From Desulfobacterales bacterium (GTDB taxonomy: Bacteria; Desulfobacterota; Desulfobacteria; Desulfobacterales; SG8-13): 64,000 nt of DNA. This document shows, one piece after another, positions 813 through 57,401 of the stretch. Position 1 is the stretch's first letter. Each line of letters begins with the position of its first letter. The stretch covers positions 13,400 through 77,399 of the forward strand of contig JBAPWQ010000049.1 in assembly GCA_049283795.1 (NCBI GenBank). Direction: 5' to 3'. A model generated the notes under the pieces. It saw only the letters and a program-made list of their open reading frames with translations, was not told the DNA's origin and searched no databases. The translations under genes were made by a program, and so were the position numbers.

Positions 813-2534
813 ATGACGAAAGATAACGGGATGGGACGTTATGCGCTGCAACTGGTGAAAACCGATTCCGGAACCGGCTATTTCGCCTGCTTTCCCCGGG
901 GAAATCCTGATTTTGCGGCCGGCCTGCGATATGCGCGGGCGCATCCCAACGATGAATTCATGCGAAAACACCTGCTGCAGTTGATAAACGCCTGGGACAG
1001 GCGCTCGCTGGCGCAGGCCATTTCGGCCTGTAAGGCGACCGATCTTTTTCTTCTGGCCCTGTATTTCGAAGCCTGCCTGCTCAATCCGCAATTCGATTCG
1101 CTGCGCCGTCTTTTCGCGTCCGCTGAGACGCAGCGCCTGGCCGATGTCACGCCGCTCGTTTATATCGGCGCCGCCCTGTTGGCGGACAGGGCAAGCCACG
1201 AAAAATGGATCCGGCTCTTTCGACTGAACATCACGGCGCATAAGGAACTTCCACATCCGGAAGGGGGGACCCCGGCGCCGCCGTTTCCCAACCGGCTCGC
1301 TATCGAGGCCGGAAAGGTGAGGCAGACATTGCAGGAGGCATTCGACCGGCGGCCGGCCGGCGCTGACCGGCAACACACCGCGCCTTTGGAAGCTGCCGGG
1401 ACCACGGCCCTGGCCCTCGACCGGCTGGCGAAAGCCGGCATTGTTCCGGGCCCTGAAATGCGGCACGAATCATCCCTCAGCCCGATCGCCCTGCTGCGGG
1501 GGTGGGAAATGAAGACGCGCGTGCACAATGGACGGCACCGCTTCACATTGGAAGGGCCTCAAACCGCCTACGGCCGCGGGCTCGACCTTGAATCGGCCCG
1601 TGCGGCCTGCGTCATGGAAATCGTCGAGCGATGCTCGGCCTATGCCGCCGTTGTCCCCGGCCGTATCGCAGGGTATCAAAAATCGTATCCCCTGCTGCAC
1701 GGCCGTGCCTCGGAGCTGCGGCAACAGCACATCAACCACCTCGATCCCAACCGGCTGACGCTCGAAGCGCCGTATTTGGATGATCCTTTCTACTGGATTG
1801 AAGGGCAGGAAGCCGCCGGAACCGGATCGCGATCCATCTTCGTGCCGGCGCAGTGCGTCTTTTTGTTCTGCAACCTGGATGAGCGCAAGCTCTTTTCCGC
1901 GCTGGGGTCGACCGGCCTGGCCTCGGGCAGCACCATGGCGGCCGCCAAAGTGAGCGCGCTGCTGGAGGTTATAGAGCGCGACAGCGAAAGCACCATGCCC
2001 TTTACGCCCCGGCAGTGTTTCGAGGCCGAGACCGAGGACCCGATGGTGGGCGCCCTGCTGGAGAGCTACGACCGGCTGGGCATCCGGGTGCAGTTCCAGG
2101 ACATGACCACCCCGCTCGGGGTGCCGTGCTGCAAGTGTTTCGTGGTTTCGGCGGACGGGCATATCGTGAAGGGAACCGGCGCGCACCTCGATGCGCGGCG
2201 GGCACTGCTGGCGGCCATGACGGAGACGCCGTATCCCTATCCCGGCGGTGCGCCGTCAGGTTCGGCCCTGCAGGGGCTCCTGCGCGTGCCATTGGAAAAG
2301 CTGCCGGATTACTCATGCGGTGACGCGGCCCGGGACCTGGAGTTGCTTGAAACCCTGCTGGTTTCCAACGGCTTCAGGCCGATCTATGTCGATTTGACCC
2401 GCCGGGATGTCGGTATGCCGGTCGTACGGGCGATCGTGCCCGGTATGGAGTTATTGGGGGATTTCGACCGTTTTTCACGGGTCAATCCGCGGCTCTATGC
2501 CAATTACGTCGGGATGTTCGGTTCTGCAGGCTGA
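813..2534 (+). CDS. YcaO-domain protein with a ~220-aa N-terminal domain of unknown function
   Basis: 573-aa ORF. YcaO-like motifs lie in the C-terminal two thirds (GRGLDLESARAACVMEIVERCSAY, LGSTGLASGSTMAAAKVSALLEVIERD, KGTGAHLDARRALLAAMTETPYPYP). AGGGG upstream of the ATG. Confidence 0.8.
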   Translation: MTKDNGMGRYALQLVKTDSGTGYFACFPRGNPDFAAGLRYARAHPNDEFMRKHLLQLINAWDRRSLAQAISACKATDLFLLALYFEACLLNPQFDSLRRLFASAETQRLADVTPLVYIGAALLADRASHEKWIRLFRLNITAHKELPHPEGGTPAPPFPNRLAIEAGKVRQTLQEAFDRRPAGADRQHTAPLEAAGTTALALDRLAKAGIVPGPEMRHESSLSPIALLRGWEMKTRVHNGRHRFTLEGPQTAYGRGLDLESARAACVMEIVERCSAYAAVVPGRIAGYQKSYPLLHGRASELRQQHINHLDPNRLTLEAPYLDDPFYWIEGQEAAGTGSRSIFVPAQCVFLFCNLDERKLFSALGSTGLASGSTMAAAKVSALLEVIERDSESTMPFTPRQCFEAETEDPMVGALLESYDRLGIRVQFQDMTTPLGVPCCKCFVVSADGHIVKGTGAHLDARRALLAAMTETPYPYPGGAPSGSALQGLLRVPLEKLPDYSCGDAARDLELLETLLVSNGFRPIYVDLTRRDVGMPVVRAIVPGMELLGDFDRFSRVNPRLYANYVGMFGSAG

Positions 2535-42112: not shown

Positions 42113-44662
42113 ATGAAACGGATCCTGACCTACCAGGTCCATCCGACCATCCCGGAATCCCTGTCCTTTCTCGAGGTGCTGTCAAGAAACCTCTGGTGGT
42201 GCTGGAAGCCCGATGCGGTGGACCTGTTCAGGCGCATCGAGCCCACGCTCTGGAAGGAATCGAACAACAATCCGATATTTCTTCTTGCGCATGTCAAGCA
42301 GTCCCGGCTGGAGCAACTGGCGGCCGACGACAGTTTCCTGGCGCACCTGAATCATGTCGCCGAACGGTTCCACGAACGGGTGACCAACAATTTGGATCAG
42401 GAGCGGACGATTTTCTCCCGCGTCGGGCCGATCGCCTATTTCTCGATGGAATTCGGCATTCACGAAAGCATGCCTCTTTTTGCCGGCGGTCTGGGTGTGC
42501 TGGCCGGGGATCACCTGAAAGCGGCGTCCAACATGGCCTTGCCTCTGGTGGGGATCGGCCTGATGTACCGAAAGGGGTATTTTCGGCAGTATCTCGATCA
42601 GGAAGGAATGCAGCAGGAGGCCTATCCGGAGGTCGAGCTGTATTACCTTCCGGTCGAAAGGGCCCGGGACGCGGCCGGCAATGAAATCACCATCGAGCTG
42701 ACCGGGCCCGACGGCGGCATCAAGGCCTTTGTCTGGCGGATCAAGGTGGGACGCACCCATTTGTTCCTGCTCGACACCAATTTGCCCGATAACCCGCCCG
42801 AGGCCCGCGAAATCACCGCCCGCCTCTATGCCGCCGAGCCCAAAATCCGCCTGGCGCAGGAAGTGCTGCTGGGAATCGGCGGAATGCGGGCGCTGTCGGC
42901 CCTGGGTATTTTCCCGTCGGTGTGCCACATGAACGAAGGGCACTCGGCGTTTTCGACCCTCGAAAGACTGGCGGTCGTCATGGACCGCTGTCACATCGAC
43001 CTTCAGACCGCGCTGCAGATCGTGCGGCGCTGCACGGTGTTTACGACCCACACCCCGGTGGCCGCCGGGCATGACGTCTTCGCGGCGGATTCCGTCCGGC
43101 CGTGCCTTCGCCCGCTGTGTGAAAGGCTGGGCGTCGAGGAAAGCGAAATTCTGTCCTGGGGCCAACCGCCCGGGGCCGGACCGAATGCGCCCCTGTCGAT
43201 GTTCATTCTGGGCTCGCGTATGTCGCAGTACCGCAACGGCGTCAGCCGGCTGCACGGCATGACCGCCCGCAAGATGTGGGCCGGCCTGTGGCCGGAGCTG
43301 CCCGAAGACGAGGTTCCCATCGCGCACATCACCAACGGGATTCACGTGTCGACCTTCGTGTCCATGGAGTTCAGCCGGCTTTTCGAGCGGCACCTCGGCC
43401 CCGATTGGTACATGAGTTCGCGTCGGCCTGAAAACATCCCGCGCATCGATGAGATCTACGATGAAGAGCTGTGGCAGGCGCACGAAATGAACCGCACCCG
43501 GCTGATCCGCACCTGCCGCGAAATGTTGAAAAAACAGTACGAAAGGCGCAATGCCCCCCGCAGTGCGCTGGCCCGGCTGGAAACGATCCTGGATCCCGAG
43601 ATTCTGACCATCGCCTTCGCCCGGCGCTTTGCCGGATACAAGAGGGCCGATCTGATCCTCCAGGACCCCGAACGCCTCGCCGCCATTCTGCACTCGGGCA
43701 CGCGGCCCGCGCAATTGATTTTCGCGGGCAAGGCGCACCCGCGGGACACCCAGGGCAAGGAGATGATCAAGCGGCTGCTCGAGTTCGTGAGAAGACCGGA
43801 AATTCGCCAGCGGGTGGTCTTTATCGAGGGCTATGACATGAGCCTGGCACGCTGCCTCGTGCAGGGGGCGGACGTGTGGTTGAACACCCCCCGCAGACCC
43901 AACGAGGCCTGCGGGACCTCGGGCATGAAAGCGGCGATCAACGGCGTTCTGAACCTGAGCATCCTGGATGGCTGGTGGTGTGAAGGCTACGCCGAGGACC
44001 GCGGCTGGTGCATCGGCGGCGGCGAGGAATACCAGGACCCGGCCTACCAGGACGCGGTCGAGAGCCAGGCGCTTTACAATGTGCTCGAAAACGAAGTGGT
44101 GCCCTGTTTCTACGAAGAGCGCAACGGCGAACTGCCGGCGCGCTGGGTCAAAATGATGAAGGCCTCGATGAAGATGGCCATGCGGGACTTTTGCAGCCTG
44201 CGGATGGTGGGCGAATACGAGGAGCGCTACTACCAGCCGATCGTTCGGCGCCTCGAGGCCCTGCTCGAGAAAGGCGGGTTGGAAGCCCGCAATCTGGCGA
44301 TCCAGGAAAAAAGGCTGGTCGGCTCCTGGAAGGACATTGCGATCGGGCTGCCGGTGCAAAGCGGCAAGGGCCCTTTTCGAGTCGGCGAGCAGTTCGACGT
44401 CACGGTGGAAGTCTGCCTCGGCGAGTTGAAGCCCGAAGACGTGGACGTGGAGCTTTACAGCGGCCACATGAAGTCGGTGGATGCGCTGGAAGGCGTCTGG
44501 ACAGCGCCGATGGCGGCCGCGGAGTATCTGGGCAACGGGCGCTACCTTTTTGCGGGCCGGGTTCCCTGCCAGGTTTCCGGCCGATACGGTTTCACGGTTC
44601 GGGTGCGGCCCAGTGGCGATGCGGCCATGAAAAACCTTCCGGGGTTGATCGCCTGGGCCTGA
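42113..44662 (+). CDS. glgP: Alpha-glucan (glycogen/maltodextrin) phosphorylase
   Basis: 849 aa. Motifs FSMEFG, GGLGVLAGDHLKAAS and the PLP-lysine motif EACGTSGMKAAINGVLNLSILDGWW. GAGGAGG RBS. Confidence 0.9.
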   Translation: MKRILTYQVHPTIPESLSFLEVLSRNLWWCWKPDAVDLFRRIEPTLWKESNNNPIFLLAHVKQSRLEQLAADDSFLAHLNHVAERFHERVTNNLDQERTIFSRVGPIAYFSMEFGIHESMPLFAGGLGVLAGDHLKAASNMALPLVGIGLMYRKGYFRQYLDQEGMQQEAYPEVELYYLPVERARDAAGNEITIELTGPDGGIKAFVWRIKVGRTHLFLLDTNLPDNPPEAREITARLYAAEPKIRLAQEVLLGIGGMRALSALGIFPSVCHMNEGHSAFSTLERLAVVMDRCHIDLQTALQIVRRCTVFTTHTPVAAGHDVFAADSVRPCLRPLCERLGVEESEILSWGQPPGAGPNAPLSMFILGSRMSQYRNGVSRLHGMTARKMWAGLWPELPEDEVPIAHITNGIHVSTFVSMEFSRLFERHLGPDWYMSSRRPENIPRIDEIYDEELWQAHEMNRTRLIRTCREMLKKQYERRNAPRSALARLETILDPEILTIAFARRFAGYKRADLILQDPERLAAILHSGTRPAQLIFAGKAHPRDTQGKEMIKRLLEFVRRPEIRQRVVFIEGYDMSLARCLVQGADVWLNTPRRPNEACGTSGMKAAINGVLNLSILDGWWCEGYAEDRGWCIGGGEEYQDPAYQDAVESQALYNVLENEVVPCFYEERNGELPARWVKMMKASMKMAMRDFCSLRMVGEYEERYYQPIVRRLEALLEKGGLEARNLAIQEKRLVGSWKDIAIGLPVQSGKGPFRVGEQFDVTVEVCLGELKPEDVDVELYSGHMKSVDALEGVWTAPMAAAEYLGNGRYLFAGRVPCQVSGRYGFTVRVRPSGDAAMKNLPGLIAWA

Positions 44663-45921: not shown

Positions 45922-48348
45922 ATGAAGGCTTACGAAAAACTGGGGGTATTTTATCTGGGGAAAGTTTTCGACCCGGCCACCCGCGAAAGGCGGGATGAAC
46001 CGCTCCTCTATGATTCCAGGGACCTTCTCACGCACGCCGTCATCATCGGCATGACCGGCAGCGGCAAGACCGGCTTGGGGATCGGCATGCTGGAGGAAGC
46101 GCTGATCGACAACGTCCCGGTGATCGCCATCGACCCCAAAGGCGATCTCGCCAACCTGCTTCTCGGCTTTCCCGATCTGCAGCCGCAGGATTTCCGGCCC
46201 TGGATCCAACCCGGCGACGCGGCGCGTCAGGGAATGGACCCGGAGCAGTTTGCCGAAAAAACCGCCGCCCTGTGGCGCGACGGCCTGGCGGCTTGGGACC
46301 AGGATCCGGCGCGAATTGCCCGGCTGCGCGCCGCCGCCGATTTCGCCGTCTACACGCCGGGCAGCAGTGCCGGTTTGCCGGTCAACGTTCTGCGCAGCTT
46401 CGCCCCGCCGCCGCCGGAAATTCGCGCGGACGGCGACCTGTTCCGGGAGCGGATCCAGACGACGGTCACCGCCCTGTTGACCCTGATGGGCATCGACGCC
46501 GAAGCCATCCACAGCCGCGAGCACATCCTGGTCTCCACCATTTTCGAGCAGGCCTGGAGCGCCGGCCGCGGCCTGGACCTGGCCGGACTCATCCGGCTCA
46601 TTCAGCAACCGCCGCTGGAGCGTGTCGGGGTGATTGATCTGGAGTCGTTCTATCCCGCCAAGGAGCGGTTTCAGCTGGCCCTGCGCTTGAACAACCTGCT
46701 GGCGGCCCCCGGCTTCGATTCCTGGCTTTCCGGAGATCCGCTGGACATCGGCCGCATGCTGTACACCCCTGCCGGCAAGCCCCGGGCCGCGATCTTTTCC
46801 ATCAGCCACCTGTCCGATGCCGAGCGCATGTTCTTTACCGCCCTGCTGCTCAATGAAATTCTCGGCTGGGTGCGGACCCAGCCGGGGACCGCCAGCCTTC
46901 GGGCGATTCTGTACATGGACGAAATCTTCGGGTTTTTCCCGCCGGTGAAAAACCCGCCGTCCAAGCCGCCGCTGCTGACGCTGTTGAAGCAGGCCCGGGC
47001 TTTCGGTCTGGGGGTGGTGCTGTCGACCCAGAACCCGGTCGACCTGGACTACAAGGGCCTGGCCAACACCGGGACCTGGTTTATCGGGCGGCTGCAGACC
47101 GAGAACGACAAGGAGCGCGTGATGGCCGGACTTGAAGGCGCCGCGGCCGGGGCGCGGTTCAACCGGCAGAAGATGGGTGAAATCCTGGCCGGTCTGGGTC
47201 AGCGGGTGTTTCTGATGAACAACGTGCACGACAGTGAACCGGTGGTTTTCGAGACCCGCTGGACGATGTCCTTTCTGGCGGGGCCGATGACCCGGGAGCA
47301 GATCAAGGCGCTTGGCGCGGTCACGGGTCATCCCGCGCCACCGGCGGCGCCGTCGTCCGGCGCGCCGTTGGCGACGGCGCCACTTGCCGGCAGCGGATTG
47401 CCGCCGCTACCGCCGACGGATGTCGCGGTGTATTATCTGCCGGCATCGGGCGCGGGCCAGGGCCTTTTGTATGTCCCGGCCGCCGGCGGCTGGCTGACTG
47501 TCCATTACAGCCATCGCGGTTACGGCGTCGACGTCAGCAAGACCATGGCCCTGGCTGCACCCATCGAAGACAGGCCCCTGCCGGTCGACTGGGACCAGGC
47601 CCTGGAGCTGGCGGGCGCTGCCGGGGACCTGGCCGGGTCTCCGCTGGCCGGGGCCGCGTTCGCGGACCTGCCCGCTGCCGCCAACCGGGCCGGGGATTAC
47701 AAAAAATGGTGCAAGGACATGCTGCGCTGGGTGCGGCAGAACCGTCCCCTGCTTCTCTACCAGTCCAAAAAGTTTAAAATGACCAGTTCCCCCGGCGAGA
47801 CCGAAGGCGCTTTTCGGGCGCGGCTCACTCAGACAGCCCGCGAGCAGCGGGACCTTGCGGTCGAAAACCTGCGCCGCAACTATGCGGAAAAGTTCGCCGC
47901 TCTCCAGGACCGCCGCCTGCGGGCCGAACAAGTTCTGGCGCGCGAGCAGGAGCAGGTCCAGACCAGAAAAATAGAGAGCGTGATCTCCTTTGGCACCGCC
48001 ATCCTGGGGTCGTTTCTGGGCCGCAAGGCCGTCAGCTCGCGCAACGTGACGCGGGTGGGCGCGGCCATGAAGTCGGCCGGGCGGCTGGGCAAGGAGCAGA
48101 TGGATGTTGCCCGCGCCCGGGAAACGATCGCCGCCGTGGACGGGAAAATTTCCGGACTCGAAGAGCGCCTGCAAATGGATATCGACGCGCTGGCGGCTGA
48201 CTACGATCCGTTGAGCGAGCCGCTGGACGAGGTGCGCGTCACCACCCGCAGCACCGACATCGCGCTCGATATTTTCGGTCTGTTGTGGCTGCCCTACCGC
48301 CGGCAGACCGGCGGGCGGTTGGTGCCGGACTGGTCGCAGCGCCCTTAA
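45922..48348 (+). CDS. HerA/DUF853-like P-loop ATPase with a ~330-aa C-terminal extension
   Basis: 808 aa. Walker A GMTGSGKTG and Walker B ILYMDEIF. STQNPVDLDYKGLANTGTWFIGRLQTE is typical of the helicase HerA-like C-terminal region. The tail is coiled-coil-rich. AAGGAGG RBS. Confidence 0.75.
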   Translation: MKAYEKLGVFYLGKVFDPATRERRDEPLLYDSRDLLTHAVIIGMTGSGKTGLGIGMLEEALIDNVPVIAIDPKGDLANLLLGFPDLQPQDFRPWIQPGDAARQGMDPEQFAEKTAALWRDGLAAWDQDPARIARLRAAADFAVYTPGSSAGLPVNVLRSFAPPPPEIRADGDLFRERIQTTVTALLTLMGIDAEAIHSREHILVSTIFEQAWSAGRGLDLAGLIRLIQQPPLERVGVIDLESFYPAKERFQLALRLNNLLAAPGFDSWLSGDPLDIGRMLYTPAGKPRAAIFSISHLSDAERMFFTALLLNEILGWVRTQPGTASLRAILYMDEIFGFFPPVKNPPSKPPLLTLLKQARAFGLGVVLSTQNPVDLDYKGLANTGTWFIGRLQTENDKERVMAGLEGAAAGARFNRQKMGEILAGLGQRVFLMNNVHDSEPVVFETRWTMSFLAGPMTREQIKALGAVTGHPAPPAAPSSGAPLATAPLAGSGLPPLPPTDVAVYYLPASGAGQGLLYVPAAGGWLTVHYSHRGYGVDVSKTMALAAPIEDRPLPVDWDQALELAGAAGDLAGSPLAGAAFADLPAAANRAGDYKKWCKDMLRWVRQNRPLLLYQSKKFKMTSSPGETEGAFRARLTQTAREQRDLAVENLRRNYAEKFAALQDRRLRAEQVLAREQEQVQTRKIESVISFGTAILGSFLGRKAVSSRNVTRVGAAMKSAGRLGKEQMDVARARETIAAVDGKISGLEERLQMDIDALAADYDPLSEPLDEVRVTTRSTDIALDIFGLLWLPYRRQTGGRLVPDWSQRP

Positions 48349-48517: not shown

Positions 48518-50164
48518 ATGCCGGCCAAACAGATCCACCGAACTCCGTCAGCCCATTCGTATCAGCTCTTGATCAAGAACATGCTGTCCACGCCCCTGGT
48601 TTACGCCCCGAAACAGGAAATCGTCTACCGCGACCGCATGCGCTATGACTATGAAACGTTTTTCAAGCGCGTGACGCGGTTGGCCGGCATGCTGCAGCGG
48701 CAGGGCGTGCAGCCGGGTGACACCGTGGCGATGATGGACTGGGACAGCCACCGCTACCTGGAGTGTTTTTTTGCGGTGCCGATGATGGGCGCCGTGCTGC
48801 ATACCATCAATGTGCGCCTGTCGGCCGAGCAGCTTATTTACACCATCAACCACGCCGAGGACGACATCATCCTGGTCAACGCCGAATTTTTACCGCTGCT
48901 CGAGGGCATAAAAGAACAGTTCGAAACGGTCAAAAAGATTATCCTCATCAACGATGGCGACGATGCGCCGAATACCTCCCTGGCCGTCGTGGGGGAATAC
49001 GAGGCCCTTCTGGGTGAGAACGACGGGGGCTTCGAGTTTCCCGATTTCGATGAAAACACGATGGCGACCACCTTCTACACCACCGGCACCACCGGCCTGC
49101 CCAAGGGGGTTTACTTCAGCCATCGCCAGCTGGTGCTGCACACCTACGGCGTCATGGCCGGACTGTGCGCCTACAAAGCCCAGGCCAAAATCGATTCGGG
49201 CGACGTCTATATGCCCATGACGCCGATGTTCCACGTCCACGCCTGGGGCATCCCTTACCTGATGACGCTGCTGGGGAGCAAGCAGGTCTATCCGGGCCGC
49301 TACGAACCGGAAATGCTGCTGAAACTGGTCGCCGCGGAAAATGTCACCTTTTCCCACTGCGTGCCGACCATCCTGCACATGCTGGTGACCAGCCCGGCCG
49401 TGAAAAAGGTCGACCTGTCGCGCTGGAAGGTCGTTATCGGCGGCTCCGCACTGCCGAAGGGCCTCTGCCGGGCGGCGCTCGATCTGGGGATCAACGTTTT
49501 CACCGGCTACGGCATGTCCGAGACCTGCCCGATCCTGACCCTGGCGAACCTCAAGCCGCACATGCTCGAATGGGACCGCGACCGGCAGGTCGACCTCCGC
49601 TGCCGGACCGGGTTGCCGATCCCAAACGTCCTGCTCGACATCGTCGATCCGGAAGGAAAATCGCTGCCGCGCGACGGTCAGGCAACCGGGGAGGTGGTGG
49701 CCCGCTCGCCCTGGCTGACCCAGGGCTATCTGAAGGAACCCGGGCGCAGCGAAGAGCTGTGGCGCGGCGGCTGGTTGCACACCGGCGACGTGGGATTCAT
49801 CGACCGTGACGGCTACCTGAAGATCACCGACCGGATCAAGGATGTCATCAAGTCCGGCGGCGAATGGGTGTCCTCGCTGACCCTGGAGGATATCATCAGC
49901 CAGCACGAGGCCGTCAGCGAGGCGGCGGTCATCGCCGTGCCCGACGAAAAATGGGGGGAACGGCCGCTGGCCCTGGTGGTTTTGAAAAAAGAGTTTGCCG
50001 GTAAAGTAAAGGAAGAAGACCTGCTGAACTTTTTCATGAAGTACGTGCAGAACGGGACCATCCCCAAGTTCGGCGTGCCGGGCCAGGTGCTGCTGGTCGA
50101 GAGCATCGCCAAAACAAGCGTCGGCAAACTCAACAAAAGGGCCCTGCGCAAGCAGTTCCGGTAG
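48518..50164 (+). CDS. Acyl-CoA synthetase (AMP-forming; fatty-acid--CoA ligase family)
   Basis: 548 aa. AMP-binding motif YTTGTTGLPKGV, plus GYGMSET, TGDVGFIDRDGYLKITDRIKD and a C-terminal SVGKLNKR. Confidence 0.85.
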   Translation: MPAKQIHRTPSAHSYQLLIKNMLSTPLVYAPKQEIVYRDRMRYDYETFFKRVTRLAGMLQRQGVQPGDTVAMMDWDSHRYLECFFAVPMMGAVLHTINVRLSAEQLIYTINHAEDDIILVNAEFLPLLEGIKEQFETVKKIILINDGDDAPNTSLAVVGEYEALLGENDGGFEFPDFDENTMATTFYTTGTTGLPKGVYFSHRQLVLHTYGVMAGLCAYKAQAKIDSGDVYMPMTPMFHVHAWGIPYLMTLLGSKQVYPGRYEPEMLLKLVAAENVTFSHCVPTILHMLVTSPAVKKVDLSRWKVVIGGSALPKGLCRAALDLGINVFTGYGMSETCPILTLANLKPHMLEWDRDRQVDLRCRTGLPIPNVLLDIVDPEGKSLPRDGQATGEVVARSPWLTQGYLKEPGRSEELWRGGWLHTGDVGFIDRDGYLKITDRIKDVIKSGGEWVSSLTLEDIISQHEAVSEAAVIAVPDEKWGERPLALVVLKKEFAGKVKEEDLLNFFMKYVQNGTIPKFGVPGQVLLVESIAKTSVGKLNKRALRKQFR

Positions 50165-50218
50165 CATCGAAAAAAATCGGCGACACATGACTGGACATAG
50201 ACCGACCCATGGAGGCTC

Positions 50219-51796
50219 ATGATGTTTTTGAAATTTTTTACCTGGCTCCGGCACCGTCAAATTTTCCTTCTTTTTATTCTTCTGGCCGTTTTTGGCGGCT
50301 GTGCCCAGCTCGATCCCTCCGAGGCCGCGGCCAATGCTCCCTTTACTTTCGAAACGGCGGTCGATGAAGCCCACCAACTTTCTCTCGCCCCCTATAAAGA
50401 CCCCACGGGTGAGGTGCCCGAACGGCTCTTGAAGATCGACTATGACGACTGGCGTGACATTCGCTTCAAGCCGCCCAAGGCCCTGTGGCGCGATGAAAAT
50501 CTGCCCTTCACGCTGCAGTTCTTTCACCCGGGCCTTTACTTCGATCGGACGGTGAAGATCAACGTGATCGAACCGTCGGGCACCATCCATCCGGTGCGTT
50601 TTTCGAAAGACCTCTTCGACTACAAGAAAAAAAGGGTTGCGGACCTCGTGCCCAATGATCTGGGCTTTGCGGGCTTTCGCATCCACTATCCCATCAACAA
50701 GCCGGAATATCAGGACGAGGTGGCCGTGTTTTTGGGCGCCAGCTATTTCCGGGCGGTCGGTCGCAACATGAATTACGGTCTTTCGGCCCGCGGGTTGGCG
50801 GTCGACACCTATCTGCCGGGCGGCGAGGAATTTCCGTATTTCCGCAAGTTCTGGATCCAGAAACCGGCGCCCGACGCGACGACGCTCACCCTCTATGCCA
50901 TTCTGGACGGTCCCAGTATTGCCGGTGCCTACCAGTTTGTCATCCATCCCGGAAAAGAGACGGTGATGGACGTCAGAAGCACTCTTTTCCCAAGGCGAAA
51001 AATCGAGCAGCTCGGCATCGCGCCGATGACGAGCATGTTCTTTTACGGTGAAAACACGTATCCGCGGCCGGTAGACGATTTTCGGCCCGAAATTCACGAC
51101 ACCGACGGCTTGATGATGGAGACCGGGTCTGGTGAATGGATCTGGCGACCGCTGGTCAACCCGCCCCGGCTTCTGGTGACCGCCTTTCAGATGACCGAGC
51201 CCAAAGGCTTCGGCCTCCTTCAGCGGGACCAGGCGTATGATCACTACCAGGACATCGAGAGCAACTACGACAATCGGCCCAGTCTCTGGGTGGCGCCGGT
51301 TGGCAACTGGGGCGAGGGGCGGGTGCAGCTGATCATGATCCCGACCGACGAAGAGATCCACGACAATATCGTGGCCTTCTGGGTTCCCGCGACGCCGCCC
51401 GCGGTCGGACGGCCCGTCAGCTTCGACTACCGCATGAGCTGGCACTATTTCGCCGACGGGCATCGCCCGCCGGGCGCCTATGTGGATGCTTCCCGCACGG
51501 CCGAAGGCAAGGCGCCCGGGCTGCGGAAGTTCGTGGTCGATTTCACCGGCGGCGACCTGGCCGCACTTGCCGCCGATCAGCCGCTCGAAGCGATCGTCCA
51601 TGTCAGTCCCAATGCCACCCTGGTCGAACAACAGCTCGCCAAAGTGCCGCAAACCGGTCACTGGCGCCTGGTCTTTCAGATCGACCCTGAAAAGAAGTCG
51701 GACCCCGGACGAGCGGATCCGATCGAAATCCGGGCCTTTTTGAAAAAAGGGGCCGATGTCCTCAGTGAAACCTGGAGCTATGTCTATCTACCCTGA
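50219..51796 (+). CDS. opgG: Periplasmic glucan biosynthesis protein, OpgG/OpgD (MdoG) family
   Basis: 525 aa with a signal peptide (lipobox-like FGGC). The length and motifs FRIHYPIN, FLGASYFRAVG, FFYGEN and RPSLWV resemble MdoG/OpgG. The ATG may be 50219 or 50222. Confidence 0.8.
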   Translation: MMFLKFFTWLRHRQIFLLFILLAVFGGCAQLDPSEAAANAPFTFETAVDEAHQLSLAPYKDPTGEVPERLLKIDYDDWRDIRFKPPKALWRDENLPFTLQFFHPGLYFDRTVKINVIEPSGTIHPVRFSKDLFDYKKKRVADLVPNDLGFAGFRIHYPINKPEYQDEVAVFLGASYFRAVGRNMNYGLSARGLAVDTYLPGGEEFPYFRKFWIQKPAPDATTLTLYAILDGPSIAGAYQFVIHPGKETVMDVRSTLFPRRKIEQLGIAPMTSMFFYGENTYPRPVDDFRPEIHDTDGLMMETGSGEWIWRPLVNPPRLLVTAFQMTEPKGFGLLQRDQAYDHYQDIESNYDNRPSLWVAPVGNWGEGRVQLIMIPTDEEIHDNIVAFWVPATPPAVGRPVSFDYRMSWHYFADGHRPPGAYVDASRTAEGKAPGLRKFVVDFTGGDLAALAADQPLEAIVHVSPNATLVEQQLAKVPQTGHWRLVFQIDPEKKSDPGRADPIEIRAFLKKGADVLSETWSYVYLP

Positions 51797-51929
51797 TGCG
51801 ACCACCGATCACCGGACGAAGCACCGCTTCCTGTTCGGAAGCCGCTTTGTCCGGCGATTGCCCGCCTGCCGGTCTTAAGACCTTCAGTTCCTGTCTCATC
51901 AACACTTTGCGACGGAACCGGGAACGGAC

Positions 51930-54900
51930 ATGCCAGAGAAGGAGCACCAAAACGGCGCTGTTGCAAAAGACGGCCTGATGCGCAGCGTGTCCCTTTTCCT
52001 GTGTGGCATTCTGGCCGCGGCGGCCGCCGTTTATGCCACCGCGCGGGGACAGGGGTGGATGAGCGCCCTGCCGGCGGGTGTTCTCGGACTGCTGGCCGCC
52101 GGGTTCTTCAAGTTGCACTTCACCGGTAAACGGCTCACGCTGCTCGAAGGATTTCAGGACTTTTGCGTGCCGGCCTTTTTTGCGCTCTGCGTTCGGGCCG
52201 GCCTCGACATATGGCAGGTGCCCAGGACGTTAAACGACCCATTCGTTATGACAGGCCTGGCCGCGAGCCTGTTCGCAGTGATCTACATTCTGGCCGTTAT
52301 GCAACATCTGGCGGTTGCCGGCCGGCATCCGCAGCCGCCGCTGGCCGCCACGATTCTGGCGATTCCCCTTCTTTTCAACGGTTTGCTTCTCATCGGATCC
52401 ACGGATCTCGTGCGATGGATCGGACGCATGGTCCTGCCCGGTGAAACCGCAGGTTTCCTCCGGCCGGTATTCCTGGGGCGCAGCGTCATATTGGGGCTGT
52501 TCAACGAGGCGGTCGCCAACCTGATCGGCCTGCTGGTGGTCCGGCGCCTGGTCACGGATGCGAGGGTGCATGCCCTGCTGCTCGCCAGCGCGGTGATGGC
52601 CGCTGTCACGCCGGAATTGGCCGACTGGGGATCGGCCGCCTACCTGGCCGGCCTGCCCTGGATTGCCGCCGTACCGGCGGCACTTTTTTTTGCCATGCTC
52701 TCCCAGGCGGGGCTCTGGAGCCAGACCTTCCTGATTACCGGCCTGATCATGGATGCCTTCCACGGCAAGCAGCCGACCTGGTACTGGGGCTCCGACCACT
52801 TCCGGGCCGGTTTTACCAAAGGGTCGGTCTACAGCCTGGTTTTCATTGCGATTGTCCAGATTATGGCCGGGCTGATGCGCATGGACGCCGTCGTTTCGAT
52901 GGCCAGGGCCGCTCCGGTGATATTCTCTGCCGTTGCGGGAGCCCTGGCCTTTCCGTTTCTGAAGACCATCATCGAAACCTTCGACGGCAGCGACAGGTTT
53001 TTCCAGCGCGCCGGCCACAATTACCGCCAGGGAATCGGATTTCTGCGCGGGGCCGTCCTGGGCGGCTTTTGCGGGGATGCCTTCGCCAACGGCCTGCCGA
53101 TGGTCGGTGGCTACGAACGGTTTTTTTTCGGTCTTCTGGCCGGTGCGACCGGCTACGGCGGCCTTGATTTTCTAAAGAATGCCTTCGAGGTGCTGACCGG
53201 CAGAAGGCAGCGCCTGCAACCCTGGCGCGTCTATGCGCTGGGCATTATTTTGGGCGGCGTTGCCGGCGGCGGCCTGGCCTGGTATGCCGATACGTTGCAG
53301 TTGCGGGTGCTGGCCAGCAAGTTCCACAAATACGCGGCGCTTTACTATCCCGCGGCCGATAAGGCCGTAGCCGATTACGTCATTTACCCGCTTTTCAGCA
53401 AGTGGGGCGCCCTGAACCTGGGCCACACCCCCGGCGGTGTCCGGCTGCTTTACAACGAAGCGCTTTCGGGCGTGATCAACTGGTCGCTGGCGGCACCGCT
53501 TTTCAGCATCAACCTCGTTGTCCTCAATGCCATGCTCCAGCGCAGCACCGCGCCACTGAAAGAGTTGTTTACGCGCCAAGGGGTGGTGGGGCTGGTCGAG
53601 CAGGCCGTGCGCGTTCTGCGGTGGGGGTTGTGGATGGCACCGGTCATCTACTCCTTCCTGCGCATGTCCCCGGACCCGACATGGTACAACCAGGACGGCG
53701 CCATCCGGACGCTTGTGGCCACAGTCAAGAGCTGGACCCTTGACCCTGAAAGTTTTCGCGCCTGGAGCCTGAATGTATTTCTCAACCTGCTGGTCTACGA
53801 CTGGTTCCGCATTCTGATCTGGGTCGACCACATGGGCCTGCGGGTGGCGACGCTTGTCAATCTGTCTTTCGTCGGCGCCGACATTCTGGACGAGAAGGCG
53901 GCCCGGGCCATTGGCTTTTCAGCCCGGACCCGCTGCATGCCCCTGGGCTTGAGGCGGTTTGCCACCTGGGCGCCCTTGCTGATCCCTTTCTACCTGCCGC
54001 GCGGCACGGAATGGAATTATGTCTGGCAAACGTCGGCGGAACGCGCCGCGCGGCTGGCGGCAACCTCCTGGCCGCCGGTCTATTATGTCATGGGCGGATT
54101 TCTGATTGTTGCCGGCGGGCTGGGACTTTTTTTCGCCAGTCAAAAACGCCGGTTTCCGCGGGCGTTCATCCGGCCAATATCGGAAGCACCCCACGGTAGT
54201 CTTTCACCGCCGTGCGGGCACGAAAAATTCGTCTTGTCCAACGGCACGTACACCACCGAGATCACCGGCGACGGAAGGGGGTACAGCCGGGTTTTCAGCA
54301 GCGCAATAAAGGGTTTCGAGATTGACCTCACCCGCCGGCCGGATGACCCGCTTCAGATGCGGGGCAAGTTTTTTTATTTACGGGATCGCAGCAGTTCGCC
54401 GGATGAACCCGACCGGCCCTGGTCCATTGGCTTCTCTCCCGCGCGGAGTCCGGAAGGCGAATACCGGGCCGTGCAAGCCGATCCCCTTTCCATGGAGATG
54501 GCGACGGAACAAGCCGGTATCCGCGCCGCCGTGCATCTGCGCCTCGATGAGACGGAACCGGTGGAAATCCGGCACGTGCGGCTGGAAAACCATGCGTCGA
54601 GACCGCGGGTCATCGAACTGACCAGTTATCAGGAGTTCGGACTGAACAACACCGACGCTTACCGGCGCCACCCTTTTTTCAACCACCTGCACATCGGGAC
54701 GCGCTTCATACGTCCGATGGCGGCGTTGCTGGCCGGCAACCGCCTGCTCAAAAAGCCGCAAAAGGACGCGAGCGGGCGGCAGGCTTCCGCAGAGACGGCC
54801 TTCCACGCGGTGCGGGAGGATTCGATGAACGGGATTTCCCTCATCGGTTACCAGGATTCCCGGGCGCATTTCATCGGCCGCGAAACGCTGGCAACTCCCG

Positions 54901-57401
54901 CGGGGCTTTCGCATGGCAGACGCGACCCGGGGGACGAAGGCCTTTGCTACACCTTCGACCCCATCGCCAGCCTGTGCCTGCGAGTCGAGTTGCCGCCGCA
55001 CGGATCGGCCACGGTGACCTTTGTCGACGGCTATGGTGTCGATGAGCGCCAGGCCCTGGCGCGCATCGCAAAACACCTCGGCAGGCAGACCCCGGAGGAT
55101 GTCCGCCAGTGGCGCGCGTTTACCCGAACGCGCAGTGTGAACCGGCGAACCGCTGCGGGAAAAACCGGCGGCGGCGACCGCGCCGCTCTTCCCTACCGGT
55201 TTTCGCCCGATGGCGGGGAACTGACCGTCGGCTGCGACACCCCCCGCCCCTGGAGCCATGTGATGGCCAATCCCCTCGGCTACGGCTGCATGGTGACGAA
55301 TCACGGCGCCGGCTATTCTTTCATGAAGAATTCACAGCAAAACGGCCTGACGCCCTTTGACTCCGACTCGGTTTCCGCGCAGCTGCCCGGCCAGGTTTTC
55401 TACCTGCTGAACCGCACGACCGGCCAGGCGGAAACGCCCACCTATATTCCCTTGCGAAGAAAAGACCGGTCGTTCGATGTCACCTGGGGCCCGGGGTATG
55501 CGATTTCCAGGAACCGCAGCGCGGCGGTCGAGCTGGAACTGTGCCATTTCGTTTTGACCGACCAACCGGCCGAGATCCGGCTGCTCACGATCCGCAACCG
55601 CACCGCAGAGCCCCAGCCGTATCGCGTGCTGCCGTATTGGCAGGTCGTGTTGGGGGAGACGCCGGTGGACACACGCGGCCGAATCGCAACCGAACACGAC
55701 CCAAGCCTCGCTGCGCTTTTCTTCTCCAATCCTCACAACGACTTCTGGCGCGGCTGGGCTTTTGCCGCCACGAGTCTGCCGGCGACCGCCTGCGAGACGG
55801 TGCGCGCCAGGGTCATCGGCGGCGGCGAGCGGGACCTCACCAATCCCTTCATGTTGCAAAGCGGCGCTTCCGATGCGACCCAGCCGGACGATGGCTTTCG
55901 CTGTGCGGCTTTTGCCGGCGAGGTGCAGGTTCCCCCGGCCGGCGAGGTGACGGTGTGTTTTCTACTCGGCCAGTGCCAAAGCCGGGAACAAGGTGCGGAG
56001 ATCATCCGCAAGTATCGGAATGTCCCCGCCGCGCAAAAGGCTTTGGCTGAAACCAAACAGTGGTGGCGGGAATATCTCGGCGGGCCGCCGGCCCGCTCCG
56101 GCGACGTTGCTGTCGACCGGATGGCCAATTGCTGGCTGCCGTACCAGGTGCTGGTGGCGCGCCTCTGGGGCCGGCTGGGACCGTACCAGCGCAGCGGGGC
56201 CTTCGGTTTCCGCGACCAGCTTCAGGATGTCCTGCCGTTTCTTCATCTCAAACCCGAGCTGGCCCGACGGCAGATTCTGCTTCACTCCGCCCAGCAGTTT
56301 CGCAGGGGGGATGTCTTGCAGTGGTGGCATCGGTCCTGGGAAGATAAGACCGGCCTCGGCGCCCATGGACGGGCTTCGGATCCTCACCTGTGGCTGCCTT
56401 ACATGGTTTACCAATACGTCAACGCTACGGGCGACTGGCAAATTCTGGACGAGAAAACACCCTACCTGGAAGGCGGTCCCCTGGAAAAAATGTCCGTGAC
56501 CCGGGTGGCCGCCCAGCGGCCTTCGCGCGACACGGCAAGTCTCTATGACCATTGTGTCAGGGCAATCGACTTTACCATTCGGAAAAACGGTCCGCACGGA
56601 TTGCCGCTGCTGGGGGCCGGAGACTGGAACGACGGTCTGGATGCGGCCGGCATCCGAAACAGGGGCGAGAGCGTCTGGCTCGGATTTTTCTTCCACGACA
56701 TACTGATCCACTTCGCCGAGCTGGCGGCGGAAAAAGAGGGGCATGACCGGAAGATGGATTTGCTGACGAAAGCCGCGGAGCTGAGAACGCGTCTCGACGC
56801 GGCGTGGCTGGGGGACAGGTATGTCAACTATTACACCGATGACGGGCGGCAGATAACCCGCGCCAACGCCCTGGTGGCCGCCTGGTCGATCCTATCCGGC
56901 GTCGCGGGTCCGGAAAGGGGGCGGCGGGCCATGGCCACGGTCCTGAAGGAACTCGAAAAGAAAACCCTCGTTCAGCTCTTTGCGCCGCCTTTCACGGAAA
57001 ATGACGCCATTTATCCCGGCCGGCTGGCCGATTATCCGCCGGGGGTCCGCGAAAACGGCGGCCAGTATTCGCACGGCGTGTCCTGGTTGGTGGATGCGCT
57101 GCTTTTTCTGGCGGAGGAAGCAAAGGGATCGGGGGAAGAGAAACTCGCCGCCGCTTACCGGTCCAAGGCGCAGAACCTGTGGCGCAAGATTTCACCGCTC
57201 GGCCACGTGTCGCTGGAAAACCTGGCAGTCTACGGACTGCCGCCCCATCAGCAGCCGGCCGATGTTTACTTCGGGCCGGGCTATGAGGGCCGGGGCGGGT
57301 GGAGCTGGTACACCGGCGCGGCGGCCCGCATGCTGTTCACCGCGCAGGCCCTGTCGGGCATCAAGCGGAAGCAAGAAGTTACACCACACCAAGGAACATA
57401 G
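51930..57401 (+). CDS. Giant membrane protein: ~700-aa polytopic N-terminal domain fused to a GH94-type (1,2-beta-oligoglucan/cellobiose phosphorylase, cyclic-glucan-synthase C-terminal-like) domain
   Basis: 1823 aa with many hydrophobic segments in residues 1-720. GH94 motifs lie in the C-terminal ~1100 aa: GAFGFRDQLQD, LLGAGDWNDGLD and ENGGQYSHGVSW. Confidence 0.85.
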   Translation: MPEKEHQNGAVAKDGLMRSVSLFLCGILAAAAAVYATARGQGWMSALPAGVLGLLAAGFFKLHFTGKRLTLLEGFQDFCVPAFFALCVRAGLDIWQVPRTLNDPFVMTGLAASLFAVIYILAVMQHLAVAGRHPQPPLAATILAIPLLFNGLLLIGSTDLVRWIGRMVLPGETAGFLRPVFLGRSVILGLFNEAVANLIGLLVVRRLVTDARVHALLLASAVMAAVTPELADWGSAAYLAGLPWIAAVPAALFFAMLSQAGLWSQTFLITGLIMDAFHGKQPTWYWGSDHFRAGFTKGSVYSLVFIAIVQIMAGLMRMDAVVSMARAAPVIFSAVAGALAFPFLKTIIETFDGSDRFFQRAGHNYRQGIGFLRGAVLGGFCGDAFANGLPMVGGYERFFFGLLAGATGYGGLDFLKNAFEVLTGRRQRLQPWRVYALGIILGGVAGGGLAWYADTLQLRVLASKFHKYAALYYPAADKAVADYVIYPLFSKWGALNLGHTPGGVRLLYNEALSGVINWSLAAPLFSINLVVLNAMLQRSTAPLKELFTRQGVVGLVEQAVRVLRWGLWMAPVIYSFLRMSPDPTWYNQDGAIRTLVATVKSWTLDPESFRAWSLNVFLNLLVYDWFRILIWVDHMGLRVATLVNLSFVGADILDEKAARAIGFSARTRCMPLGLRRFATWAPLLIPFYLPRGTEWNYVWQTSAERAARLAATSWPPVYYVMGGFLIVAGGLGLFFASQKRRFPRAFIRPISEAPHGSLSPPCGHEKFVLSNGTYTTEITGDGRGYSRVFSSAIKGFEIDLTRRPDDPLQMRGKFFYLRDRSSSPDEPDRPWSIGFSPARSPEGEYRAVQADPLSMEMATEQAGIRAAVHLRLDETEPVEIRHVRLENHASRPRVIELTSYQEFGLNNTDAYRRHPFFNHLHIGTRFIRPMAALLAGNRLLKKPQKDASGRQASAETAFHAVREDSMNGISLIGYQDSRAHFIGRETLATPAGLSHGRRDPGDEGLCYTFDPIASLCLRVELPPHGSATVTFVDGYGVDERQALARIAKHLGRQTPEDVRQWRAFTRTRSVNRRTAAGKTGGGDRAALPYRFSPDGGELTVGCDTPRPWSHVMANPLGYGCMVTNHGAGYSFMKNSQQNGLTPFDSDSVSAQLPGQVFYLLNRTTGQAETPTYIPLRRKDRSFDVTWGPGYAISRNRSAAVELELCHFVLTDQPAEIRLLTIRNRTAEPQPYRVLPYWQVVLGETPVDTRGRIATEHDPSLAALFFSNPHNDFWRGWAFAATSLPATACETVRARVIGGGERDLTNPFMLQSGASDATQPDDGFRCAAFAGEVQVPPAGEVTVCFLLGQCQSREQGAEIIRKYRNVPAAQKALAETKQWWREYLGGPPARSGDVAVDRMANCWLPYQVLVARLWGRLGPYQRSGAFGFRDQLQDVLPFLHLKPELARRQILLHSAQQFRRGDVLQWWHRSWEDKTGLGAHGRASDPHLWLPYMVYQYVNATGDWQILDEKTPYLEGGPLEKMSVTRVAAQRPSRDTASLYDHCVRAIDFTIRKNGPHGLPLLGAGDWNDGLDAAGIRNRGESVWLGFFFHDILIHFAELAAEKEGHDRKMDLLTKAAELRTRLDAAWLGDRYVNYYTDDGRQITRANALVAAWSILSGVAGPERGRRAMATVLKELEKKTLVQLFAPPFTENDAIYPGRLADYPPGVRENGGQYSHGVSWLVDALLFLAEEAKGSGEEKLAAAYRSKAQNLWRKISPLGHVSLENLAVYGLPPHQQPADVYFGPGYEGRGGWSWYTGAAARMLFTAQALSGIKRKQEVTPHQGT

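Follow-up and report, generated by a model that had tools for sequence, protein, structure and literature searches.

A widespread fusion of a Cgs-type GH94 phosphorylase to a large membrane domain of predicted new fold, recurrently encoded beside exported beta-1,2-glucan enzymes

In a 64,000-nucleotide stretch of contig JBAPWQ010000049.1 from a Desulfobacterales bacterium (the window), a gene of the OpgG family is followed on the same strand by an open reading frame (ORF) of 1823 amino acids that joins a membrane domain to a phosphorylase module of family GH94. It can be taken as established that this fusion protein combines a GH94 module of the kind found in Cgs, the synthase of cyclic beta-1,2-glucan, with a large membrane domain whose fold is new, and that its gene is linked to those of exported beta-1,2-glucan enzymes. 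Periplasmic beta-1,2-glucans have a bearing on osmoadaptation, virulence and symbiosis, and the known machinery for them consists of OpgH, OpgG and OpgD, or of Cgs and its exporter; we know of no enzyme that lowers or rebuilds the periplasmic glucan pool. The reading that we favour, with a probability of roughly 0.4, is a turnover module in which the OpgG paralogue beside the fusion gene (OpgG') serves as glucanase, the membrane domain as conduit and the GH94 module as cytoplasmic phosphorylase. The parts on which the argument rests are listed here.

50219-51796, plus strand: opgG paralogue encoding OpgG' (GH186/MdoG family; Pfam PF04349, E 1e-195)
51797-51929, plus strand: 133-nt spacer that separates opgG' from the fusion gene
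51930-57401, plus strand: fusion gene, ORF of 1823 amino acids
51930-54164, plus strand: N-terminal membrane domain, residues 1-745, predicted all-helical, no known family or fold
53367-54029, plus strand: most conserved core of that domain, residues 480-700 (invariant columns in alignment A1)
54078-54152, plus strand: last transmembrane helix, residues 717-741, then KRRFPRAFIR (hydropathy and AlphaFold helix)
54219-55022, plus strand: GP1 subdomain, residues 764-1031 (aligns with residues 1539-1784 of A. tumefaciens Cgs, 8rf9; i-Evalue 4.5e-9)
55242-55970, plus strand: GH94 beta-supersandwich, residues 1105-1347 as the best stretch (Pfam PF06165, E 2.4e-79)
56064-57341, plus strand: GH94 (alpha/alpha)6 catalytic domain, residues 1379-1804 (Pfam PF17167, E 5e-69)
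56619-56633, plus strand: GDWND motif with the catalytic Asp, residues 1564-1568 (aligns with LGGDWNDG of Cgs)

An undescribed and widespread fusion family

The window protein belongs to a family that a full-text search found nowhere described in the literature. A HMMER search of 1.84 billion representative proteins recovered 437 clusters (at 50% identity) at E<=0.001, whose long representatives of about 1780-2250 amino acids all share one architecture, and a scan of GTDB r232 with one genome per species found the membrane domain encoded in at least 570 species genomes. Its carriers are Desulfobacterales and other Thermodesulfobacteriota, Desulfovibrionaceae, Myxococcota, Geminicoccaceae and other Alphaproteobacteria, several Gammaproteobacteria, Burkholderiales and Omnitrophota; two of them, Benzoatithermus flavus and Sinimarinibacterium sp. 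CAU 1509, are cultured, and the genomes nearest to the window are metagenome-assembled Desulfobacterales genomes at 87% amino-acid identity. The family is thus both widespread and undescribed, and unites a Cgs-type GH94 module with a membrane domain of about 745 residues and, by our topology, about 18 passes. Public databases name its members 'glycosyl transferase family 36' or 'cyclic beta-1,2-glucan synthetase' and nothing else, and both names mislead for the fusion proteins.

For a comparison of loci we took 83 related loci together with the window (84 in all), each with 10 kb on either side. In 79 of the 84, GH94 comes in frame after the membrane domain; the remainder are cut by contig ends, and metagenome proteins that seem to stand alone are frameshift splits. 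Judged from these sequences the fusion is obligate, which points to a substrate handed over directly from one part of the protein to the other.

A membrane domain without known relatives

The N-terminal domain could be assigned to no family. As a single sequence it had no Pfam or NCBIfam match at E<=0.1 (residues 1-740) and no match to a PDB sequence at E<=10 (residues 1-745). A profile of 14 sequences that are 35-48% identical to the window protein (alignment A1) found nothing significant among PDB sequences, the sole match being an unrelated enoyl-CoA hydratase at E 0.37, and Pfam scans of each of the 14 aligned members at E<=5 gave no consistent match. In an AlphaFold2 model built with the 14-sequence alignment (pLDDT 81 and pTM 0.81 for this domain) we see about 25 helices, one beta hairpin (residues 481-500) and no Rossmann-type sheet. 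The best Foldseek match of this model in the PDB has an E-value of only 0.19, and among the 50 matches listed the TM-score stays at or below 0.14 with a root-mean-square deviation above 18 A; these 50 include no convincing match to Cgs, GT-C enzymes or transporters, no GT-C entry that would point to a GT-C membrane core, and matches to pyrophosphatases, ABCB1 and MATE at E 0.3-2 with deviations above 20 A. The known transporter superfamilies (MFS, ABC, RND, MOP and others) are likewise represented by no Pfam match and no recognisable fold. On the predicted model, the membrane domain is new as a fold. An internal duplication was also considered and dropped, as hhalign between sub-alignments of the domain gave no match.

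The earlier note on this DNA, made from the letters alone, had recognised no glycosyltransferase module in this part of the protein, and sequence, profile and predicted-fold searches agree with it; none of the three revealed a hidden glycosyltransferase domain. Residues 1-745 contain neither D-x-D nor QxxRW, and the domain has no similarity to E. coli OpgH (hhalign probability 1.4%). The note's description of the region as almost entirely hydrophobic, in contrast, needs correcting. Strongly hydrophobic helices make up residues 15-350 of the fusion protein, whereas residues 350-715 hold glycine-rich amphipathic helices, the beta hairpin and the polar and aromatic motifs with the strongest conservation. 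Those of the conserved core are YPLFSKWG, RWGLWMAP, WYNQDG, DHMGLRVATLVNLSF and RRFATWAPLLIPFYLPRG; the whole of RWGLWM.P, WYNQDG and DHMGLRVATLVN.S is invariant in A1, as are E349 and D352 (in TIIETFDGS) on the 5' side of the core. Many Trp, Tyr, Asp, Glu, Arg, Asn and His residues are invariant too, and they cluster in those parts of the domain that are assigned to the membrane and the periplasm.

From the predicted helices we infer about 18 membrane passes, with both ends of the domain in the cytoplasm. The GH94 module would then be cytoplasmic, because the positive cluster KRRFPRAFIR follows the last clear helix, which hydropathy places at residues 717-738, and the positive-inside rule places such clusters on that side. 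ETFDGS (residues 349-354) would sit at the cytoplasmic edge, and the hairpin, WYNQDG (585-590) and RRFATWAPLLIPFYLPRG (675-692) would lie on the periplasmic side.

This pattern of conservation could be taken to mean that the membrane domain is itself an enzyme: a new membrane-embedded glycosyltransferase or transglycosylase with a GT-C-like site at the membrane or periplasmic face, possibly using a lipid-linked glucose donor, so that the fusion protein would match Cgs in function while being made of other parts. Invariant E349, D352, D454, D589, D633-H634 and D651, together with many Trp residues in loops and helices, amount to a level of conservation that suits catalysis better than a passive pore, and one divergent locus (L002, see below) pairs the fusion gene with a 1544-residue GH144/DUF3131 protein and an ABC exporter, much like a split Cgs. 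We nevertheless consider an enzymatic membrane domain quite improbable. It has no Foldseek likeness to GT-A, GT-B, GT-C or Cgs (the best E-value being the 0.19 given above), and the Cgs structure 8rf9 was among the PDB sequences searched; DxD and QxxRW are both missing, no polyprenyl-phosphate-glucose synthase recurs in the gene neighbourhoods (six-frame ORF clustering), and OpgH occurs in some of the loci.

A complete phosphorylase module of the Cgs type

The C-terminal part of the fusion protein had been called a GH94 module that looks complete, and Pfam, the alignment with Cgs, the motifs and conservation across the family all uphold this, with catalytic residues intact. PF06165 and PF17167 both score above their curated cut-offs, which places the module in GH94 (clan GH-Q), and no other Pfam family matches the fusion gene. 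In a search of PDB sequences the closest match to the module is Cgs (E 1.8e-134), cellobiose phosphorylases reach no better than E 2.7e-43, and SOGP structures are not among the matches at E<=0.01; residues 1098-1812 align with Cgs 2045-2750 at an i-Evalue of 9e-124. RDQLQD (residues 1428-1433) and GGQYSH (1710-1715) both align with the corresponding Cgs motifs. We take the Arg and His of RDxxQD and GQYxH to form the phosphate and sugar site, as in cellobiose and chitobiose phosphorylase structures. Every complete family member examined, those of a divergent sub-family included, retains DW[ND]D, RDQLQD and the His motif, and the assignment of the catalytic Asp goes back to D2528 of Cgs (PMC11842490).

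In Cgs the phosphorylase part begins at residue 1536 and is made up of GP1 and GP2-3 with a Rossmann-like insert (1847-2012) between them (PMC10901819). Only 66 residues separate the two Cgs-aligned blocks of the fusion protein, which therefore has a full GP1-GP2-GP3 module without the Rossmann-like insert. The similarity to Cgs ends there, as a comparison proposed in the earlier note now makes clear: the fusion protein shares with Cgs the GH94 module alone, and nothing in it aligns with Cgs residues before 1539. Both proteins are membrane-bound and carry the module C-terminally, probably in the cytoplasm. Beyond this the fusion protein (1823 residues, against 2799 and 2818 in the Cgs PDB chains) differs in lacking GT84/GT2, the N-terminal scaffold, the GH189/GH144-like cyclase and the Rossmann-like insert, and in having about 18 predicted passes of no known fold where Cgs has 6 (PMC10901819). 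GT84, with its D, D, D and RW motifs, is absent, no GT family being found by Pfam or NCBIfam in a protein whose N-terminal fold is predicted to be all-helical. The GH189 (GH144-like) cyclase is absent too, with about 22 residues between the last helix (ending at 741) and GP1 (from 764) and no PF10091. A short Cgs is excluded as an identity for the protein by the lack of GT84/GT2, cyclase and insert, and equally because the model of its N-terminus shows no glycosyltransferase fold and resembles no PDB structure.

The module's similarity to the Cgs phosphorylase and its linkage to OpgG or GH144-like genes suggest that it acts on beta-1,2-glucan and does so by phosphorolysis. A further parallel is offered by BcsA-type GT2 synthases, which likewise join a cytoplasmic glucan-active module and a multi-pass domain rich in conserved aromatic residues in one polypeptide; here, however, the module is a phosphorylase and not a nucleotide-sugar transferase, and the fusion protein has no QxxRW and no GT-A fold.

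An OpgG gene adjoins the fusion gene in loci of several phyla

OpgG' is 42% identical to E. coli OpgG (EcOpgG), and PF04349 covers 477 of 478 positions in it. Besides the MdoG domain it has the catalytic residues: D294, R353, E379 and D382 align with D273, R332, E358 and D361 of EcOpgG, for which catalytic and proton-relay roles have been described (a general acid Asp and an Asp/Arg relay; PMC10514313). The segment matching EcOpgG 409-425, in the Loop A region, is deleted in OpgG'. This region sets activity in EcOpgD and EcOpgG, and some clades without Loop A may differ in function (PMC10514313). The N-terminus, MMFLKFFTWLRHRQIFLLFILLAVFGGC, reads as a lipoprotein-type signal, which makes a periplasmic lipoprotein the probable form of OpgG'. 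In a tree built by neighbour joining, the OpgG copies that are linked to GH94 in the window's relatives group together with OpgG' itself, while the OpgH-linked copies of two related loci (L014 and L016) form a separate branch.

Gene neighbourhoods were analysed by tblastn with defined queries and by six-frame ORF clustering; as complete loci we counted the 49 with a complete fusion gene and at least 2.5 kb on each side. An opgG lies within 10 kb of the fusion gene in 26 of the 84 loci and directly adjoins it on the same strand in 17 of the 49 complete ones; the window's clade and Anaeromyxobacter have it upstream, whereas in other Thermodesulfobacteriota, in Gammaproteobacteria and in Burkholderiales it lies downstream. 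The adjacency suggested by the window alone is thus kept in relatives across phyla (Thermodesulfobacteriota, Myxococcota, Gammaproteobacteria and Burkholderiales), and the pairing goes beyond chance because the fusion recurs and opgG adjoins it in 17 of 49 loci, in both gene orders. Six-frame ORF clustering brought up no other widely recurrent partner gene. From this repeated pairing, periplasmic glucan metabolism would seem to have a third part that has gone unrecognised.

GH144-like neighbours in divergent loci and periplasmic repeats in a sub-family

In three divergent loci (L002, L003 and L080) it is GH144/DUF3131-type genes that lie beside the fusion gene, the type to which endo-beta-1,2-glucanases belong. 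On the sequence evidence, the fusion protein appears to partner extracytoplasmic beta-1,2-glucan enzymes, usually a dedicated OpgG' and in some lineages a GH144-like one. In L002 (725-8146 and 17390-18943) the neighbours comprise an ABC exporter with a DUF1854 tail, the 1544-residue DUF3131/Glycoamylase protein and an outer-membrane efflux protein, a set that looks like a split Cgs-like export system. Directly 3' of the GH94 gene, L002 (15234-17276) and L003 (16277-18463) each encode a protein of 680-728 residues without a Pfam match; the two are 53% identical to each other.

In a sub-family whose members include P0003, P0020, P0022, P0030, P0035 and the Omnitrophota locus L069, the conserved domain is preceded by a signal peptide, then by tandem repeats of about 155 residues (between one and four of them) and then by an extra membrane helix. 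Examples of the repeat are the following.

P0003, residues 39-205: repeat region
P0030: four copies
L003, 10001-10864: repeat region
L069, 116-949: repeat region

The repeat has no Pfam match. It is modelled as a beta sandwich (AlphaFold pLDDT 92) whose best Foldseek match is a carbohydrate-binding module (CBM) of family CBM11 (E 3.6e-8, TM-score 0.58), followed by CBM4, 22, 6 and 16, and G16, E91, K93, G94, W118, G122, E126 and F150 are invariant in it. On this predicted fold, the repeat may be a new family of carbohydrate-binding modules. Periplasmic repeats of CBM fold imply that the outer face of these proteins handles glycan, and the sub-family's extra helix fits with a cytoplasmic N-terminus of the core domain as modelled.

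These features bear on a further explanation, in which the membrane domain would only anchor the phosphorylase or regulate it, for example by sensing osmolarity or membrane tension; the phosphorylase would work on cytoplasmic glucan, such as chains freed at the cytoplasmic side of OpgH, and nothing would be translocated. OPG synthesis (that of osmoregulated periplasmic glucans) is indeed osmoregulated at the enzyme level in E. coli, and the domain shows no transporter-like fold or repeat. In Cgs, moreover, every soluble domain is cytoplasmic (PMC10901819). We give this explanation little credence all the same: about 18 passes and dozens of invariant polar and aromatic residues far exceed what anchoring needs, and the periplasmic CBM-like repeats and the exported OpgG' or GH144-like partners point to an extracytoplasmic substrate.

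Coexistence with OpgH and the question of direction

In the E. coli OpgG-OpgH system the gene beside opgG encodes a GT2 synthase. The window likewise has an OpgG-family (GH186) gene with its catalytic residues, and such genes recur beside the fusion gene, but the neighbour of the window opgG is not a GT2 synthase, its membrane domain is unlike OpgH, and OpgG' falls in a separate paralogue clade without the 409-425 loop of EcOpgG. The canonical operon of opgG followed by opgH is not found at the window locus. The earlier note had described the phosphorylase as standing there instead of an OpgH. As a general statement this replacement has to be given up, since opgH homologues (E. coli OpgH query) lie within 10 kb, in the same locus as the fusion gene, in four related loci, two of which have a full opgGH operon. 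In the 64-kb window itself, tblastn with E. coli OpgH found no opgH.

The four loci differ in layout. The order is MFS, fusion, opgG, opgH in L037 and opgH, fusion, opgG in L049. In L014 and L016 a canonical opgG-opgH operon is accompanied by a second, divergent opgG with the fusion gene after it, and a sigma-54 response regulator lies between the two units; the OpgG paralogues, two per locus, are encoded on opposite strands (L014 326-9754, L016 504-9956). This arrangement suggests separately regulated modules for synthesis and processing. Because a canonical opgGH accompanies the second opgG, the fusion gene of L014 and L016 is an addition to OpgGH and not a replacement for the synthase, and no second synthase is needed there. 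Where both are visible, the fusion gene coexists with OpgH. In L037 the first gene of the series (569-1825) encodes an ATG22-like MFS transporter, and its end overlaps the start of the fusion gene by 4 nt.

These observations bear on the opposite direction of flow, a phosphorylase-driven synthase and exporter. Here GH94 would elongate the non-reducing end of the chain from glucose-1-phosphate (Glc1P), the membrane domain would extrude the chain reducing end first, much as BcsA extrudes cellulose, and OpgG' would process the product; in a milder form the protein would only trim or control the length of outgoing glucan, like the phosphorylase part in Cgs. GH94 reactions can run both ways, SOGP in vitro turns Glc1P into long beta-1,2-glucan (PMC3960220), and the closest GH94 relative of the module belongs to a synthase (Cgs). 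The ABC exporter and outer-membrane efflux protein that adjoin the fusion gene in L002 would fit, the periplasmic CBM-like repeats would suit the guiding of a nascent chain equally well, and two-thirds of the complete loci have neither opgH nor opgG within 10 kb. A possible source of Glc1P is also at hand: an alpha-glucan phosphorylase (DUF3417 + Phosphorylase; window 42113-44662, plus strand) is encoded 5.5 kb 5' of opgG, and near the fusion gene in three of the closest relatives as well (L004, L005 and L007). That linkage is confined to the closest relatives, however, and the gene may mark a link through Glc1P or mere synteny. Set against the exporter are further the opgH beside the fusion gene in four loci, two of them with the canonical operon, and the lack of any primer-forming or nucleotide-sugar domain in the fusion protein. 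Cytoplasmic phosphate, moreover, is normally in large excess over Glc1P, so that net synthesis would need a strong pull. We therefore regard synthesis and export, although the strongest of the rival readings, as rather unlikely.

Glucan turnover as the favoured reading

The turnover that we favour would begin in the periplasm, where the lipoprotein OpgG' would cut periplasmic beta-1,2-glucan and thereby create free chain ends. The membrane domain would take up a chain at its conserved periplasmic face and conduct it across the inner membrane, and the cytoplasmic GH94 module would remove glucose from the non-reducing end with phosphate, releasing Glc1P. The net result would be an ATP-free recovery of periplasmic glucan, for example after osmotic upshift. 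What we infer rather than read from the genes is the beta-1,2 specificity, the topology, the part of the membrane domain as a conduit and the inward course of the chain. Of the two alternatives that the earlier note had left side by side, turnover and salvage or synthesis by reverse phosphorolysis, the former is thus the one we prefer.

The order of steps is favoured because glucanase, membrane passage and cytoplasmic GH94 mirror a cluster of Listeria, for which an ABC transporter, SOGP and a GH3 enzyme have been proposed to form a beta-1,2-glucan utilisation system (PMC3960220). In other known beta-1,2-glucan loci an extracytoplasmic endo-glucanase acts first (PMC12102758). What the SOGP loci (Listeria innocua lin1838-1843) have in common with the present system is passage through the membrane followed by a cytoplasmic GH94 that yields Glc1P from beta-1,2-oligoglucans. 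They differ from it in relying on a separate ABC system with a binding protein, where we find a fused, ATPase-free membrane part of predicted new fold, and the GH94 module of the fusion protein is Cgs-like.

Several points weigh against turnover. The membrane domain resembles no transporter fold by Foldseek, and the internal repeat seen in many transporters was not found in it by hhalign between sub-alignments; our topology is a manual assignment based on predicted helices and on counts of charges under the positive-inside rule. About two-thirds of the complete loci have no adjacent glucan gene, and in the Geminicoccaceae loci that were checked for conserved neighbours these turned out to be housekeeping genes. 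The ABC exporter and outer-membrane efflux protein of L002 fit export as well as import, and the nearest GH94 relative, the Cgs phosphorylase, works within a biosynthetic enzyme. To our knowledge, OPG turnover is no established process, and OPG are not degraded in E. coli.

Leaving the direction aside, we tentatively propose that the membrane domain represents a new class of glycan-conducting machine, powered or gated by the phosphorylase, whether as an importer or as an exporter that does without UDP-glucose. As an importer it would carry out a 'vectorial phosphorolysis' in which periplasmic beta-1,2-glucan is reeled inward and clipped to Glc1P; as an exporter it would be a beta-1,2-glucan synthase-exporter run on Glc1P. 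Either form, if true, would be the first phosphorylase-coupled polysaccharide translocase and a third core component of OPG biology, with a new membrane fold that moves polysaccharide without ATP or nucleotide sugars. By recycling or exporting glucan, such a protein would reveal the means by which cells shrink or replenish their pool of periplasmic glucan, and turnover in particular, if true, would mean an energy saving in anaerobes.

The locus in the window and its other genes

The gene order described earlier holds as given: three ORFs lie on one strand, separated by 54 nt (acyl-CoA synthetase to opgG) and by the 133-nt spacer. The remaining gene of the three is the following.

48518-50164, plus strand: long-chain acyl-CoA synthetase (NCBIfam NF004837, 653 bits; Pfam AMP-binding domains)

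NCBIfam has no model for OpgG' or for the 1823-residue fusion protein. The spacer contains no promoter-like or terminator-like site, region-wide counts being at or below those of shuffled controls, which is compatible with co-transcription of opgG' and the fusion gene. No regulatory RNA, tRNA, promoter or terminator near the genes rose above background.

The acyl-CoA synthetase had been thought a possible supplier of acyl substituents, an idea that we have dropped. It adjoins the system only in the closest relatives, at about 80% identity or more (L004-L008, L010 and L011), whereas in relatives at 51-61% identity opgG still adjoins the fusion gene and the synthetase is gone. What remains is lineage-specific synteny, and the acyl-CoA synthetase probably stands outside the system.

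On the 3' side the fusion gene is followed by sensor kinases on the opposite strand, and on the 5' side the window has a HerA-like ATPase, a DUF547 gene and the alpha-glucan phosphorylase. No glycosyltransferase family was found by Pfam among the nearer neighbours of the fusion gene, nor among the 25 Pfam families listed of the 43 matched by 26 upstream window ORFs. An 808-residue protein with only a weak HerA/DUF87 P-loop match is encoded at 45922-48348 (plus strand); it also lies beside the acyl-CoA synthetase in L004, L005, L007, L009 and L011, and as a fragment in L010.

A 923-residue antisense ORF without a family match (48890-51661, minus strand) runs across the acyl-CoA synthetase and opgG. 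As a gene it was rejected as an artefact, for in relatives it recurs merely as a shadow of the real genes; because antisense shadow ORFs of this kind were picked by gene calls based on the longest ORF or on GC content by codon position, such calls were not used for any conclusion. Unrelated to the fusion gene, a YcaO-domain protein is encoded at 813-2534 (plus strand) of the window.

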